A stretch of DNA of 54,618 nt from Syntrophus aciditrophicus (lineage in GTDB: Bacteria > Desulfobacterota > Syntrophia > Syntrophales > UBA8958). The DNA lies in contig DYRD01000006.1 of assembly GCA_020718905.1 (NCBI GenBank), forward strand, positions 1 to 54,618. The letters run 5' to 3'. The position numbers and the translations under genes are program-made. The notes under the pieces were generated by a model. The model worked only from the letters and a program-made list of their open reading frames with translations. It searched no databases and had not been told where the DNA came from. Positions 3,926 to 40,668 of this stretch are shown piece after piece (within the stretch, counting starts at the first letter, position 1; each line of letters starts with the position of its first letter).

Positions 3926-4753
3926 TCACCCTTTTGCCTCTTCCCAGAGGCGGTCCATCGTAGGGAGATCGGCCTCCTCCATCCTGACGCCTTCCTCCTG
4001 CAACCTGGTCTCGATATATTGGAACCTCCTCAGGAATTTAGCCGTCGTCCGGCGCAGGGCCTCTTCGGCCCGCACATGGGCAAAGCGGGAAAGGTTGACC
4101 ACGGAAAAGAGGAGATCCCCGATCTCTTCCTCCATGCCGTCCTGATCTTGCCGCCCGATGGCTTCTTTCAGCTCCTGAAGCTCTTCTTCGATCTTCTCGA
4201 TGACCTGCTCTGTCCTCTCCCAGTCAAACCCGACCGTTGCGGCCCGGGCGGTTATTATATCCTGGGCCCGCGACAGGGCCGGCAGGGAACGGGAGATACC
4301 GTCAAACAGCGTGCTTGCCTGCCTGCCCTTACACTTCTCCGTCGCCTTGATCTGTTCCCAGTTGGCCTTCACCTCGGCGACGTCCCGGACCGACTGGTCG
4401 GCAAAGACATGGGGGTGGCGGCGGATCATCTTTTCCGATACCTCCCGGACCACCCCGGCAAGATCGAAATGCCCCTGTTCTTCCGCCAGGACGACGAGGA
4501 AGAGGATTTGAAAGAGCAGGTCTCCCAATTCCTCCCGGAGGTCCGCCGGAGAACCTCCGGCGATGGCATCGATTACTTCATAGGCTTCGCTCAGCACGTA
4601 CCGCCCGAGATCTTTTTCTTTCTGCACCCGGTCCCAGGGGCATCCGGCGGGAGAACGGAGGCTCCTGATCAAGGCAAGAAGTTCGCCGATCTCCGGCGAC
4701 GGTTCGCGATTGCGCGCTGTCTCCCCTTGTTTTTCCACTTCAAAACTCCTCAT
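3926..4753 (-). CDS. mazG: Nucleoside triphosphate pyrophosphohydrolase MazG
   Basis: GCPWD, EAYEVIDAI, EELGDLLFQ, RRHPHVF, GFDW and EEEIGDLLF motifs. Confidence 0.95.
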   Translation of the reverse strand: MRSFEVEKQGETARNREPSPEIGELLALIRSLRSPAGCPWDRVQKEKDLGRYVLSEAYEVIDAIAGGSPADLREELGDLLFQILFLVVLAEEQGHFDLAGVVREVSEKMIRRHPHVFADQSVRDVAEVKANWEQIKATEKCKGRQASTLFDGISRSLPALSRAQDIITARAATVGFDWERTEQVIEKIEEELQELKEAIGRQDQDGMEEEIGDLLFSVVNLSRFAHVRAEEALRRTTAKFLRRFQYIETRLQEEGVRMEEADLPTMDRLWEEAKG

Positions 4754-32831: not shown

Positions 32832-34012
32832 ATGAAAATTATCCACACCTCCGACTGGCATCTTGGCCGCGCCCTCCACGGCCGGAAAAGATACGAAGAA
32901 GGCGAGGCGTTCCTGAACTGGCTGGCCGGTCTCATTGAAGAGCAAAATGTCGATGCCCTCCTCGTTGCCGGCGATGTCTTCGACAGCACCACCCCCAGCA
33001 ACCGGGCCCAGGAATTGTACTACCGGTTTCTCTGCCGGACGGCTGCCGCTGCCCACCGCCAGGTGGTGATAATCGCGGGCAATCACGATTCGCCGTCCTT
33101 CCTGAACGCCCCCCGGGAAATCCTGAAATTCCTCAATGTCCATGTCGTCGGGGACGCCTCCGGCCCTCCCGCGTCTGCGCCATCCCCTATCTCCGGGACC
33201 GCGATATCCGCACCACCGAGGCGGGGGAAAGCGTCGCGGACAAGGAAAGAAAGATCGTTGCCTGCATCAGGAACCACTACCGTCGCGTCTGTGCAGCCGC
33301 CGCAGAGCGGCGGGCCCTCCTGGGCAATCCGGTTCCGATTGTCGCCATGGGACACCTCTTTACGGCAGGCGGCCAGACCATGGACGGCGACGGGGTGCGG
33401 GAGCTCTATATCGGCGCCCTGGCCCAGGTCGGGACGGATATTTTTCCCGGGAACATCGATTACCTGGCCCTGGGGCACCTCCACATGCCCCAGGCAGTGG
33501 GCGGCTCCGAATTTATCCGTTATTCCGGCTCGCCTCTCCCCATCGGCTTCGGGGAAGGGAACCAGGAAAAAACGGTCATCATGATCGAGTTTGCCGGGCC
33601 TAAACCCCGGATCACGAATATCCCGACGCCGCGGTTCCAGGAGTTGCTGACCCTGAGGGGAGATTGGCCGGCGGTTTCCGGGAAAATTGAGGAGCTGAAG
33701 TCCCGCCGGAGCCGTGCCTGGCTGGAGATCGTCTATGAAGGGGACGAGGTCGCGGGGAGTCTGCGGGGACGGTTGGATGAGGCCGTTGCCGGAACGGATA
33801 TGGAAGTCCTCCGGGTCGGGAACAACCGCATTCTGGAACGGGCCCTGAGGGGAACGGACGGGGGGGAGACCCTCGACGATCTCGATGCGACCGAGGTGTT
33901 CCGACGCTGCCTCGCCGCCCATGAAGTCCCGGAAGATCAACATTCCGCCCTCCTGGAGGCCTACGGGGAGGTTATCGTCTCCCTGGAGGAGACAGATCCC
34001 CGGGCGGAATAG
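32832..34012 (+). CDS. sbcD: Exonuclease SbcD, broken by a deletion and frameshift near 33170
   Basis: HTSDWHLG, AGDVFD, GNHDS; second frame VCAIPYLR..MGHLF..YLALGHLH..RYSGSP. Confidence 0.92.
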
Positions 34013-34025
34013 GAGACAAGAAGAA

Positions 34026-36571
34026 ATGAGAATTCTCGGCATCCGGTTCAAGAATCTGAATTCCCTCACCGGGGAATGGCAGGTAGATTTTACCCATCCC
34101 GACTATGCCTCCGACGGCATTTTCGCCATTACCGGCCCCACCGGGTCGGGAAAGACCACGATCCTTGACGCCGTCTGTCTTGGCCTTTACGGTCGGACGC
34201 CCCGCCTCGACAAGGTCACGAAAGGCAGCAACGAGATCATGTCGCGCCAGACCGGAGAGTGCTTTGCCGAGGTCGATTTCGAGACCCAGCAGGGGCGTTA
34301 CCGATGCCACTGGAGCCAGCATCGCGCCCGGAGGCGCCACGACGGGGAATTGCAGCCGGCCCGGCATGAAATAGCCGCCGCCTCCGGCGCCGTCCTGGAG
34401 TCGGGAATAACCCCCGTAGGTGAATTCATCGCCAAGGTAACGGGCATGGACTTCGAACGGTTCACCCGCTCCATGCTCCTTGCCCAGGGAGGGTTCGCGG
34501 TCTTTCTTCAGGCCGGGTCCGAGGACCGGTCCCAGATCCTGGAACAGATAACGGGCACGGAAATCTACATCCGGATCTCCATGAAGGTTCATTAACGAAG
34601 GACGGCGGAACGCACCCGCCTGGAGAGCCTCAAGAGTGAATTATCGGGGATACGGATTCTCGGCGGCGACGCAGAGGAAGAGCTGCAAAACAACCTGGCC
34701 GTAACACAGCGCCGGGAAGGGGAAAGCCTCCGCCAAGCGGCAACCTGGCTTGAGGGATTGGCCGTCATGGAGAAAGACTTGGCTGATCTGGACCGGCGGT
34801 GTCAGGAGGGAGAAGTACGCCAGGCGGCCTTTGCTCCGGAGGCAAAGAGGCTCGCGAAAGCACGCCGGGCCCTCGTTCTGGAAGGAGACTACCGGTCGGT
34901 CGTGAGTCTGCGCACCCAGCAGGATCATGAGCAAAAGGAGCTCATCACCACTGCCGTAAGACTTGCGGAAATTGAACAGGCCGGGGCCGACGCCCGGGCA
35001 ATAAAGGATAGCGCCGAGAACCGGTTGGCGGAGGTCCGAAATGAGCAGTCCGCGGCGGCAGAAATTATCAGAGCGACCCGTGAGCTCGATACCAGGCTCA
35101 GGGAAATGAAGAACCAGGGTGAAGAAAAGGAAAAGGCCCTTCAGGAAGGAAACAGGCGGCATCAGGAACATGGCCGCCGCCTGGAAAAGGGTCGGGAGGA
35201 ACTGGAAAAAGCACAACAGGACCTGGAGGCAGTGCGTGCATACCGTCAGGCCCATGCTCATGACGCCGTCCTGATGGCCAATTTGGCCGCCATTCGCCTT
35301 GGCTTTGCCTCGCTTCGGGAGATCGCCGCGCGCCATGAAGGCACCTGTCAAGAGCTCGCCCTCCATGAGGCAACCAGAGAGACCCTTTATGCAGAACACA
35401 AACAGAGGGGGGACACTTACGAAAAAACATGCCGGGAATTTGAGGAAAGGCAAAGAACGGTCAATCTTCTCACCGCGCAACTTGACGAGCTGCGGCAAGG
35501 ACGTGAACTCAGCCAGTGGCATAACGAACGAAACAATCTGAAAGACCGGGAGGTTTCCCTCGTCAAAGCCATGGAGATCGTCACGCGGAGAGAGTCAACC
35601 CTTGAAGCTATCCGCGCCGCCGCGAAGGAACTGGCAGCGACAAGGGACCGTCAGGGGGCACTGGCTATAGAGATTAAGGCCGCTGTCGATAAAAAATCCG
35701 CCCTGGAATCACATATTACCGATCTGGAAACCCAAGCCGCACTCCTGAACCGCATCCGCAGCCTGGAGGAAGACCGGAAACGCCTCCTAGACGGACGACC
35801 CTGCCCTTTGTGCGGCGCCCTCGACCATCCCTACGCCCAGGGCAATGTCCCCGAACCGAGCGCCGCGGAGCAGGAGCTGAACAAATCAAGACGGCCGCCG
35901 CTATTGAACATGAAGAAAACATCCGTTCCTGCGAGGGGCAGCTCAAACAGATCAGACTCGAAATCGGCGGCATAATCAAAACTCTGCAGGATAACGATGA
36001 CCTGAGGAAAAGACAGCAGGAACGCCTCCGGCAGCTCGACGCCCAGAAAAAGGAATGTCTGCGCTGGGATACGTTGCATCAATTGATCGGCTCGGCGGAC
36101 GGCAAGAAATTCCGCAATTTCGCCCAGGGGCTGACTTTCGAGATGATGGTCTCTCACGCCAACGGGCAACTCCGCAAGATGACGGACCGCTATCTTCTCA
36201 TCAGAGACGTCGGGCAGCCGCTGGAACTGAATGTGATCGACAACTACCAGGCCGGGGAGATCCGCTCCACGAAAAACCTCTCCGGCGGCGAAAGCTTCCT
36301 CGTCAGCCTGGCCCTGGCCCTTGCGCAGATGGCCAGCCGGAACGTGCGTGTTGATTCCCTTTTTCTCGATGAAGGATTTGGAACCCTTGACGAAGAGGCA
36401 CTCGAAACGGCTCTGGAGACGCTGGCCGGCCTCCGGCGGGACGGAAAGCTCATCGGCGTCATCTCCCATATCGCCGCTCTTAAAGATCGGATCAGCGCCC
36501 AGATACAGGTCATACCATAGCGGGGGGGCCGCAGCCGCATCGTCGGTCCCGGCTGCCGGCGGATTGCTTAG
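34026..36571 (+). CDS. sbcC: Exonuclease SbcC, interrupted (TAA 34593, frameshift or deletion near 35885, TAG 36518)
   Basis: NLNSL, TGPTGSGKT, LAQG.F..FL, coiled coil, Zn hook CPLCG, LSGGE, LFLDEGFGTLD, VISH. Confidence 0.92.
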
Positions 36572-38986: not shown

Positions 38987-39439
38987 ATGAACGCTGACAC
39001 AACGCAATTTTCTAATATAGCTGAATTGTTGGTGGAACAATCCCCGGATGGCATCGTGTTCGCCGACAAAGCAGGCATAATTCGCGTTTGGAATATTGCA
39101 GCGGAGAGGATTTTCGGATTTACAGCCAGTGATGCCCTGGGAGCAAATCTAAATATTATCATTCCCGAACGCCTCCGGGATACCCATTGGCGCGGGTTCG
39201 AACGTGCCATTGCCGAGCGCGCCACGAAGTACGCCGGGCAAGCTCTACCCACCAGAGCAGTTCGTTCGGATGGCACTTATCTATATGCCGAGCTCAGCTT
39301 CGCTATTGTCCTTGATGCAAAGAGTGATGTCCTGGGCGCGCTAGCCCATGCACGCGACATTACTGAACGCTTCGAGAAAGAGCGTGTTGATAGAAAACGT
39401 CTCCGAGAGCTCGAGAAAATATTAGCTTGCAAGGCCTAA
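38987..39439 (+). CDS. Stand-alone PAS-domain protein
   Basis: SPDGIVFAD..WNIAAERIFG..IIPERLR..HW.GF..RDITER. Confidence 0.88.
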   Translation: MNADTTQFSNIAELLVEQSPDGIVFADKAGIIRVWNIAAERIFGFTASDALGANLNIIIPERLRDTHWRGFERAIAERATKYAGQALPTRAVRSDGTYLYAELSFAIVLDAKSDVLGALAHARDITERFEKERVDRKRLRELEKILACKA

Positions 39440-39512
39440 TCTGGCAGCCGGGGGTAGCGAAACCCCAGCTCCTTGGCAGATAGAAGCCCTCGATCTTTTA
39501 GCTATTCGCAAC

Positions 39513-39914
39513 CTATCTTGACATGGTACCGCTGGAATCGGGGGAAGTAATGTAAAGAGGCAACCCCGGAAACGACTGAGTACTTGACCCCGGGGAAGCG
39601 CCCTGCTGAGCAGACGCACTCGGTTCGACATAAACCGGTTTCCCCTTGACGGTAAAGCTTCCTGTTGTGAGGGCCTTGACGATTTTTGCCGCCGTGGTTT
39701 TCCCGTCGTCAAAGGTGACGACGACAATCCCTTCTCTCGGCATCTCGAATTTGCCGACACCGTCCGTACTTCTAAGGATGGACCCCATCCTGGCCCGATC
39801 CCCTCAGGAATTGCAGCCGGGAACGCTTAATTGCACCGTCCTCATTTCGGCCCGGGCAAATTGGCTGCTCCCCATCTGGATCGCCAAACAGAGGGTGAGA
39901 ATAAAAGCCTTCAT
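39513..39914 (-). CDS. Putative secreted HMA-like selenoprotein (CxxU), 133 aa
   Basis: ATG 39914 reads MKAFILTLCLAI..ARAEMRTVQLSVPGCNS-TGA(39806-39804)-GDRARMGSIL, in frame with ORF 39513..39788; hairpin just downstream of the TGA. Confidence 0.7.
39775..39791 (-). promoter_or_regulatory. Candidate bacterial SECIS element
   Basis: AGGATGG-GGT-CCATCCT, a perfect 7-bp stem with a GGU loop, starting 12 nt after the UGA. Confidence 0.6.
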
Positions 39915-40071
39915 AAATGACCCTTCAAGCTCCTTTTGCTGCAATGATTCTTGCGATTATCGCCGCGGCGACGGCAGGCGATTTTTCTGTCCTTCTTCGC
40001 CGCAAATTTTCAATTTGTCAAGTAGCAAAGAAGCTGTTACATAGTTGCCGCTTCACGAAAGGAAAGACGAT

Positions 40072-40668
40072 ATGGGTCTGATTCTTAGCCATCCCCTGAT
40101 CCTTGCCTCCGCCTCTCCCCGGCGGGAGGAACTGTTGCGCCTGTTGGGACTTGATTTCCAGGTTATCCCCAGCCGGACCGACGAGACGTTCTTCATTAAC
40201 GAAAAACCTGCCGAGCACGTCCTGAGGCTTGCGGAAAACAAGGCCCACACCGTCGCCCAGACCCATCCTCACGCCTGGGTCCTGGGGGCGGATACCATTG
40301 TGGTCATCGACGGCGAGGTCCTGGGCAAGCCGGCCGATGCTTCCGCCGCAGGGCGCATGCTTGAAAAACTCAGCGGCCGGACCCACGAGGTCTTTACGGG
40401 CTTTGCTCTTATGCGCCTGGCCGGACAGGTCGCCATCAAAGAAGGGGTCCGGGCCGCCGTCACCTTTCGGAACATTTCCGCAGATGAAAAATTGTGGTAT
40501 ATAAAGTCGCCGGAACCCTATGACAAGGCCGGGGCCTACGCCGTCCAGGGGCTGGGGGCCTTCTTCATCAAGGAGATCCAGGGGTCCTATACCAATGTCA
40601 TGGGCCTGCCCCTCTGTGAGGTCGTGGATGTGTTGAAAAAGACCGGATCCCTGAGGTTCGAGGTATGA
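40072..40668 (+). CDS. maf: Maf nucleotide pyrophosphatase
   Basis: ILASASPRR, GADTIV, LGKP, LSGRTH, DKAGAY, NVMGLP. Confidence 0.95.
   Translation: MGLILSHPLILASASPRREELLRLLGLDFQVIPSRTDETFFINEKPAEHVLRLAENKAHTVAQTHPHAWVLGADTIVVIDGEVLGKPADASAAGRMLEKLSGRTHEVFTGFALMRLAGQVAIKEGVRAAVTFRNISADEKLWYIKSPEPYDKAGAYAVQGLGAFFIKEIQGSYTNVMGLPLCEVVDVLKKTGSLRFEV

Follow-up and report, generated by a model that had tools for sequence, protein, structure and literature searches.

A predicted exported HMA-fold selenoprotein with a C-x-x-U loop, conserved in an order of anaerobic bacteria

The window analysed here is a 54,618-nucleotide stretch of DNA from Syntrophus aciditrophicus (assembly GCA_020718905.1, contig DYRD01000006.1, positions 1 to 54,618 of the forward strand). 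On its minus strand, with a ManC-like gene on one side, a Maf gene and then a YggS-like gene divergent on the other, and PAS genes also among the neighbours, lies a gene of 133 codons that begins at ATG 39914–39912 and contains a single in-frame TGA, at codon 37 (Table 1). The list of open reading frames (ORFs) made with translation table 11 holds two pieces here and nothing else, a 91-residue piece that starts at an internal ATG (39788) and a 46-residue N-terminal piece, which agrees with the statement in an initial annotation, made from the letters of the window, that the ORF track covers just 91 residues of the gene. The elements described in that annotation were each found in the sequence: the start at ATG 39914, an N-terminus in which FARA is followed by E, the stretch TVQLSVPG-C-N-S ahead of the UGA, the open frame beyond it, and the hairpin AGGAUGG-GGU-CCAUCCU 12 nt past the UGA. 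With the TGA read as selenocysteine (Sec, U), the loop around codon 37 is V-P-G-C-N-S-U-G. We judge it likely that the gene encodes a genuine, exported selenoprotein with an HMA fold.

Table 1. Features of the in-frame-TGA gene, in window positions
Feature	Position	Strand	Evidence
Whole gene, Sec-UGA at codon 37, TAG stop at 39515-39513	39513..39914	-	Full-length orthologs in 41 of 61 related genomes
Predicted Sec-type signal peptide, residues 1-22, cleavage after A-R-A	39849..39914	-	Inspection and homolog alignment
Cys34 codon TGC, first C-x-x-U ligand, strand 1-helix 1 loop	39813..39815	-	Invariant in alignment A2; aligned to first Cys of HMA CxxC
Sec37 codon UGA, N-terminus of helix 1	39804..39806	-	TGA in 41 of 44 homologous genes; kept in X3, X5 and X10 contigs
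Putative SECIS hairpin, 7-bp stem, apical loop GGU, 12 nt past UGA	39775..39791	-	Minimum-free-energy fold, covariation, likeness to selD
Predicted HMA/MerP-like beta-alpha-beta-beta-alpha-beta domain, residues 24-96	39627..39845	-	AlphaFold2, Foldseek, profile search, TIGR02052
Ser/Pro/Gln-rich tail, residues 97-133, low model confidence	39516..39626	-	pLDDT and conservation of the tail motif

A six-frame search was performed on 61 genomes, the window's own and 60 relatives from its genus, family and order. It returned 46 match rows corresponding to 44 distinct genes, two rows being tail fragments of genes already counted, and all 44 genes were read. A homolog is present in 41 of the 61 genomes, and a TGA lies within the ligand loop in 41 of the 44 genes. 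The loop reads C-x-x-U in 34 genes, the form found at most loci; in six others (L048, L051, L052, L055, L056 and L067) the Sec lies one codon earlier, giving C-x-U, and one gene reads Y-x-x-U (L062). A single gene has C-x-x-C, with the codon TGT (L036, genome G050), and two have neither Cys nor Sec (L053 in G044 and L059 in G007). The Cys ortholog at L036 shares its ManC-like, Maf and YggS-like neighbours with the Sec loci, and all other genes read from its taxonomic family (L058, L073, L074 and L075) are of the Sec form; it therefore looks like a recent replacement of Sec by Cys. Across the sampled genomes Sec forms predominate and Cys forms are exceptional, and judged by these sequences the family is conserved across the whole order of anaerobic bacteria.

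In an alignment of 20 homologous sequences (A2), residues G33, C34, U37, G38, R42, G52, D70, G85 and P93 are invariant, and conservation of the protein is unbroken on both sides of the TGA. This continuity speaks against termination at UGA37, which would leave a 36-residue peptide and a separate 91-residue protein starting at ATG 39788. Public gene callers do yield just such truncated proteins: all 21 protein-database hits of the gene are truncated, with lengths of 75 to 117 residues and coverage of at most 68% of the query. However, the internal Met that the gene callers choose is Met in only half of the 20 aligned sequences, the remaining 10 having Ile or Val. It also falls inside helix 1, so that strand 1 and the ligand loop would be missing from the 91-residue product, and the Cys ortholog reads straight through at the same syntenic locus. 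We consider termination very improbable; the database entries are cut short because the Sec codon looks like a stop.

Alternatively, a TGC might have been misread or misassembled as TGA, or the TGA might be a recent mutation in a pseudogene; the true protein would then be an HMA protein of the usual CxxC type. The two codons differ by one C>A change, and the reading frame is broken elsewhere in the window, in a split sbcD-like gene; the initial annotation had raised a C>A error of this kind as a caveat. The caveat does not apply to codon 37, where the TGA is shared, in the same loop, by 41 of the 44 homologous genes from 41 genomes and is followed by a covarying hairpin. The codon is also covered by assembled contigs of three other public runs, with no listed difference there. 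One is a DNA run from another sample of the possible source study (X3; 0 differences over 39714–39997), the second is a DNA run from a different study (X5; 4 differences over 39714–39903) and the third is a metatranscriptome library (X10; 4 differences over 39765–39933). As these are contigs rather than raw reads, and as an RNA library can hold DNA, they count as support for the sequence and give only a weak hint of expression. The codon-37 TGA is not an error, and the probability that we leave to that explanation is negligible.

The window's genome (3.0 Mb in 319 contigs, 97.8% complete) contains a tRNA-Sec that scores 75.6 bits, above the Rfam cut-off, and that ARAGORN calls as tRNA-SeC with anticodon TCA. 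SelB (374 bits), SelA (598 bits) and SelD (388 bits) are all found above curated cut-offs, SelD with one in-frame TGA. TGA is otherwise an ordinary stop codon in this genome: it terminates 10 of the 35 long non-overlapping ORFs of the window, and several orthologs of the gene end at TGA precisely where others have TAA. These observations, together with the presence of the four Sec components, tell against a further explanation, in which TGA is a genome-wide sense codon for Trp or Gly. Several full-length database relatives have W here (for example P0023, P0024, P0025 and P0029), as such a code would allow, but the entries, judged as protein records, are most simply gene calls made with a TGA=Trp table, and the alternative residue at the site is Cys, not Trp or Gly. 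We attach virtually no weight to reassignment of the codon.

A bacterial Sec UGA is expected to be accompanied by a selenocysteine insertion sequence (SECIS). In the Escherichia coli fdhF SECIS, the apical stem-loop that SelB binds lies ~11 nt past the UGA with G and U in the loop, and the layout of the hairpin found here agrees with it. The minimum-free-energy fold includes the perfect 7-bp hairpin with its GGU loop. The 68-nt stretch that contains it is not unusually stable (z = 0.99), and 40 perfect 7-bp hairpins with loops of 3–5 nt occur on both strands of the window; the chance of such a hairpin 9–16 nt past a given TGA is ~0.3%, and ~0.2 are expected among the 72 candidate in-frame TGAs. 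Chance in the window alone does not settle the matter, and the significance of the hairpin derives from its conservation across genomes. It stands in the same place at all 19 TGA loci of L020–L039 and is absent from the Cys locus, L036.

Covariation was assessed in 17 of the 19 loci, L023 and L028 being left out as duplicates or near-duplicates of the L022 and L027 stretches. In the 8-pair helix, 97.1% of the cells are standard pairs, compared with 39–48% when the 3′ partners are slid by 1–3 columns, and none of 500 shuffles matched the observed pairing percentage or covariation score. Pairs that have changed on both sides are columns 18–36 (GC in 8 sequences, CG in 7, unpaired in 2), columns 24–30 (AU in 8, GC in 8, CG in 1) and columns 21–33 (GC in 16, AU in 1). 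Columns 18 and 36 are third positions of Ala and Leu codons, at which the changes are synonymous, and this indicates selection on the RNA. The outer pair (39792–39774), formed in most relatives, is a C-U mismatch in the window; a variant seen in X5 and X10 (39774 A>C) changes CTT to CTG, so that a C-G pair can form. Where the Sec lies one codon earlier (C-x-U), the hairpin keeps its register with the protein and hence lies 15 nt past the UGA.

The selD gene of the same genome provides a second example. Its in-frame TGA (L018, 1528–1530; contig C136 of the window's genome, G000) is followed after 11 nt by AGGUCC-GGG-GGACCU, a 6-bp stem, and the two hairpins are alike in having a stem 11–12 nt past the UGA and a G-rich triloop. 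An Rfam scan of 39500–39950 returned no SECIS family and one weak, unrelated match (DABA-DC-AT, 15 bits against a gathering threshold of 56). By sequence comparison, the conserved hairpin behaves as a SECIS. The checks on other sequencing data, on the Sec machinery and on homologs that the initial annotation had suggested, each of which could have refuted its reading, left it standing: the contigs of the three other runs keep TGA at 39804–39806, tRNA-Sec, SelA, SelB and SelD are all present, and the homologs have TGA, rarely Cys, followed by a conserved, covarying hairpin. From this body of sequence evidence, it is predicted with very high confidence that the gene encodes a genuine selenoprotein into which selenium is incorporated.

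The N-terminus of the protein is hydrophobic and ends in A-R-A before E23, with no canonical lipobox on inspection. The 20 aligned homologs also have a hydrophobic N-terminus, mostly with a small-x-small pair just ahead of strand 1. These features point to a Sec-type signal peptide and hence to export. An AlphaFold2 model computed on A2 has a mean predicted local distance difference test (pLDDT) score of 76.4, with block means of 85–96 over residues 21–100, and comprises a strand (24–30), a helix (37–49), two strands (53–60 and 63–69), a helix (75–84) and a final strand (90–96). With Cys34 in the loop that follows strand 1 and Sec37 where helix 1 begins, the model has the ligand geometry of an HMA domain. 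The top Foldseek match is oxidized MerP (1osd; E = 7.1e-5, template-modelling score of 0.82 on the target, 32% identity), and most of the other matches listed are HMA domains. The A2 profile, compared with solved structures, matches the N-terminal domains of CopA (1p6t, 7.5e-10), MerP (1osd, 1.7e-7, and 1afi, 6e-7) and CopZ (6ff2, 1.2e-6), and the profile alignment places C-x-x-U on the metal-binding C-x-x-C. The HMA-like continuation that the initial annotation had described past the UGA is thus confirmed by both the solved-structure profile search and the predicted fold. In the model, the fold is that of an HMA domain and the closest relative is the periplasmic mercury-binding protein MerP.

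In the tail, pLDDT block means fall to 46–52 from residue 101, and residues 106–118 score below 50. The C-terminal part carries LPLY followed by SPDSSGTMSR (39516–39563, minus strand), conserved within the genus (L020–L024) and partly in L025, L027, L028 and L030. This motif could be a sorting or interaction tag.

The likeness to MerP (TIGR02052; 1osd and 1afi) extends to a predicted signal peptide ahead of one HMA domain of ~70 residues and to two chalcogen ligands, one in the strand-1 loop and one at the N-terminus of helix 1; MerP is both the best sequence-model match and the best structural match of the protein. The NCBIfam model TIGR02052 aligns to residues 9–84 (E = 8.5e-9), its match starting early enough to take in MerP's own signal region, and an FDD-x-KT stretch before helix 2, which we take to be a feature of MerP, also occurs here. 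The differences are as follows. The Hg(II)-binding motif of MerP has the consensus GMTCxxC, whereas the loop here is PG-C-x-x-U-G, with Sec for the second Cys and no Met-Thr. At 35.8 bits, the score falls far short of the 92.55 required of an equivalog. In the genome, merT gave no match and merA none that exceeded its cut-off (merR was not searched for). The gene lies in a housekeeping locus that is conserved, rather than in a mobile resistance operon, and it encodes an extra Ser/Pro-rich tail. The protein has a MerP-like architecture but is not a MerP equivalog.

Two other known systems can be compared. NF041115, a UxxU metal-binding selenoprotein, is the 'putative mercuric reductase' of an Olavius symbiont study, according to passages of a 2026 review (PMC13188914). 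Like the present protein, it is a selenoprotein of HMA type whose metal-binding motif contains Sec, but it has two Sec residues in a canonical GMxUxxU loop, whereas the protein here has one Sec, with Cys first, in a shortened loop, and with its CxxU motif scores 16.2 bits against a cut-off of 95. CopZ and the N-terminal HMA domains of CopA (PF00403) have the same fold and the same ligand positions, but are cytoplasmic and contain Cys only, and the Pfam model misses this protein at E ≤ 10. The remaining NCBIfam matches, to MerTP, Gram-positive MerP and CopZ, are weak like that to NF041115, and no specific model of NCBIfam (release 20) recognises the protein.

On the reading that we favour, SelB carrying Sec-tRNA(Sec) would bind the hairpin 12 nt past UGA37, and Sec would be inserted in place of termination. 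A Sec-type signal peptide of ~22 residues would then direct the product across the inner membrane, and the mature protein of ~111 residues would consist of a 73-residue HMA-fold domain and a flexible Ser/Pro-rich tail. Cys34 and Sec37 would stand where HMA domains have their two metal-binding cysteines. Their thiolate–selenolate pair could bind a soft, thiophilic metal ion, such as Hg(II), Cu(I) or Cd(II), as a periplasmic buffer or chaperone, and the selenolate would bind more tightly, or at lower pH, than a thiol. From the fold, the ligand geometry and the relationship to MerP, we lean towards periplasmic soft-metal binding as the most likely function, an assignment by analogy made with modest confidence. 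That Sec is found nearly always, and Cys rarely, at a metal-binding HMA site suggests that the selenolate is functionally required.

Several observations weigh against this interpretation. No Pfam family, HMA PF00403 included, matches the protein at E ≤ 10. Compared with the aligned HMA domain (GM-T-C-x-x-C), the loop has two residues fewer between the Gly and the first Cys, and two extra past the second ligand; this departure from GMTCxxC, with no Met-Thr before the first Cys, goes with the weak support from family models. The neighbours are the housekeeping genes Maf, YggS-like and ManC-like, with no metal-related gene nearby, and for want of a metal operon the locus gives the metal assignment no support. 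MerT is unmatched in the genome, and the best MerA score, 280 bits, does not reach the cut-off of 454. Chelation by two ligands of one chain is not universal in the family, since L062 (YxxU), L071, L072 and L080 have no first Cys. The support from other runs comes from assembled contigs rather than raw reads, and the X10 RNA library may contain DNA. Co-occurrence with hgcA is not significant, as described below, and a paralog in a redox cluster favours a different function.

In that alternative, the protein is again a genuine secreted selenoprotein, but Cys34 and Sec37 form a redox-active selenenylsulfide, and the protein serves as a periplasmic electron carrier or reductant. Prokaryotic CxxU and UxxC motifs are mostly redox motifs, as stated in parts of the 2026 review (PMC13188914). 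MerP itself can form a disulfide, 1osd being the oxidized form. The paralog just mentioned, a C-x-U gene of genome G024, follows a cytochrome bd subunit II gene and a gene for a class-I disulfide-reductase flavoprotein (matched best in NCBIfam by dihydrolipoyl dehydrogenase, at 536 bits, which is under that model's cut-off) and precedes a secreted peroxiredoxin (L086:4318–4872, plus strand) with an in-frame TGA (4546–4548) at its F-T-P-V-U active site; judged from these genes, the neighbourhood looks like a periplasmic redox or oxidative-stress cluster. However, this context is found in one genome and for the C-x-U sub-form only: eight paralog or out-group loci were considered, 20 of their 32 picked neighbouring ORFs being scanned, and no recurrent partner gene was found among them, the seven loci besides that of G024 showing unrelated neighbours. 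In addition, the fold is that of HMA and not thioredoxin-like, and members without the first Cys could not make an internal selenenylsulfide. We regard a redox function as the main rival reading and a serious one, though less probable than metal binding. The initial annotation had proposed a periplasmic Sec-containing metal-binding or redox protein; its Sec and HMA parts are supported, while its functional part, metal binding or redox, stays a matter of inference.

HMA domains at Pfam level occur in the genome only as a pair at the N-terminal end of a single large ORF on contig C36; this ORF resembles a P-type ATPase. The genome also encodes HgcA (443 bits against a cut-off of 275; L042, G000 contig C223:9154–10146, minus strand), and hgcA is found above cut-off in 29 of the 61 genomes. 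An association of the selenoprotein family with hgcA was considered and rejected as evidence: 22 genomes have both, 19 the family only, 7 hgcA only and 13 neither (Fisher p = 0.19, uncorrected for phylogeny), and with strong family hits only the value is p = 0.31, likewise uncorrected.

Among 20 loci, the neighbours conserved are a YggS-like gene (at least 12), Maf (at least 11) and a ManC-like gene (at least 10), these counts being lower bounds in that the ORF picking missed some, at L020 included. This housekeeping locus is conserved across many families of the order, the Cys locus included, which argues for vertical inheritance and a constitutive role, and not for a mobile resistance function. 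A consensus scan of 39350–40100 found no promoter or terminator. Apart from this gene, the window contains an sbcD-like gene (32832–34595, plus strand) that is split, with ~110 N-terminal residues read from 32832 and the C-terminal part in another frame (33347–34012), and the sbcC-like ORF that follows it ends early at 34595. These breaks are real, arising from assembly errors or pseudogenes, and are probably the 'other apparent errors' of the initial annotation. A second candidate with an in-frame TGA and a hairpin, at 33846–33848 (plus strand), lies out of frame inside the broken sbcD-like gene and was rejected as spurious.

Beyond the order, a sample of the phylum gave matches at E ≤ 1e-5 in 20 of 301 genomes, eight of them in the window's order (G000 counted). 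Four strong TGA-bearing matches fall outside the order (G330, G314, G278 and G308), and the weaker matches include canonical GMTCxxC HMA proteins (L076–L078). The relatives L071, L072 and L080, in which Sec has no Cys partner, read PGVVUG, and L070 is also of the C-x-U sub-form. The C-x-U, Y-x-x-U and P-G-V-V-U-G sub-forms each have a downstream hairpin, as judged by eye for the Cys-less forms. At L079 (G088, contig C122), an HMA protein reads GM-I-U-P-A-U, with two in-frame TGAs, and looks like the known UxxU type.

A profile search of 1.84 billion protein representatives gave 612 matches at E ≤ 1e-3 and 50 at E ≤ 1e-10. The best 80 of the 150 matches listed were inspected. Among these are fragments that start just past the Sec position, full-length proteins with W at that position (at least P0023, P0024, P0025 and P0029), true Cys forms (P0026, P0028, P0038, P0056, P0027 and P0034) and a sister group with C-x-C or C-x-W spacing, together with Cys-less members. 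The relatives P0041, P0057 and P0032 pass the Pfam HMA cut-off, whereas the closer P0026, P0023, P0061 and P0044 fall below it. The public metagenome proteins with W at the Sec position (P0023, P0024, P0025, P0029 and others) represent a second type of mis-annotation, presumably through a TGA=Trp table. In NCBI and JGI records, proteins of close relatives, with the source names Deltaproteobacteria and Syntrophus, are called 'hypothetical protein' or, once, 'copper chaperone CopZ'.

Selenoproteins of HMA type, and others related to mercury, are already known. Table 1 of the 2026 review lists, in the passages at hand, MerT-type proteins (C/SxxU), a P-type ATPase (UxxC), the UxxU protein NF041115 and MbdU (PMC13188914). 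Those passages of the table hold no secreted CxxU MerP-like or HMA entry, and the terms 'MerP' and 'HMA' are absent from the main text (PMC13188914). The portions consulted of a 2022 review have no such selenoprotein entry (PMC9312934), and in those of a 2022 preprint on eight new selenoprotein families MerP is mentioned only as a classical protein. The main text of BSepDB (PMC13326102) does not contain the terms searched for an HMA-like selenoprotein family. A 2006 survey credits Syntrophus aciditrophicus with 19 selenoproteins, none of an HMA kind being named in the sections seen (PMC1794560). The GOS selenoproteome table, under known families, gives a 'Mercuric transport protein MerP' with 2 sequences, 1 unique, and 0 Cys homologs (PMC2398784). 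The name suggests a Sec-containing MerP-like protein, possibly of the family described here; the main text gives neither motif nor sequence. The entry does not appear in the parts seen of the 2022 (PMC9312934) or 2026 (PMC13188914) reviews, and its first description was not traced. Related sequences may therefore already have been listed in the 2008 GOS set. What is new here is an apparently uncurated family of HMA-fold selenoproteins with a loop motif of its own, predicted export and near-obligate Sec.

We regard this as a solid selenoprotein family and a clear case of a publicly truncated gene, not as a new principle. The family is mis-annotated in the databases searched, and the number of selenoproteins counted in these organisms may be an underestimate as a result. 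At its boldest, the periplasmic HMA scaffold, nearly always a Sec protein (41 of 44 genes), could be a vertically inherited housekeeping feature of this syntrophic order, acting as a selenolate trap or hand-off for Hg(II) and other soft metals that gates their entry into the cytoplasm; alternatively, the HMA fold might have become a periplasmic selenol redox carrier that serves secreted Sec-peroxiredoxins. We offer this wider view as speculation and hold it doubtful. If the trap were real, control would extend, in the many members that carry hgcA, to the Hg(II) that reaches the methylation machinery. The protein would be a good model for what selenium adds to soft-metal coordination, and it is a candidate player in the handling of metals, possibly mercury, by syntrophic anaerobes.

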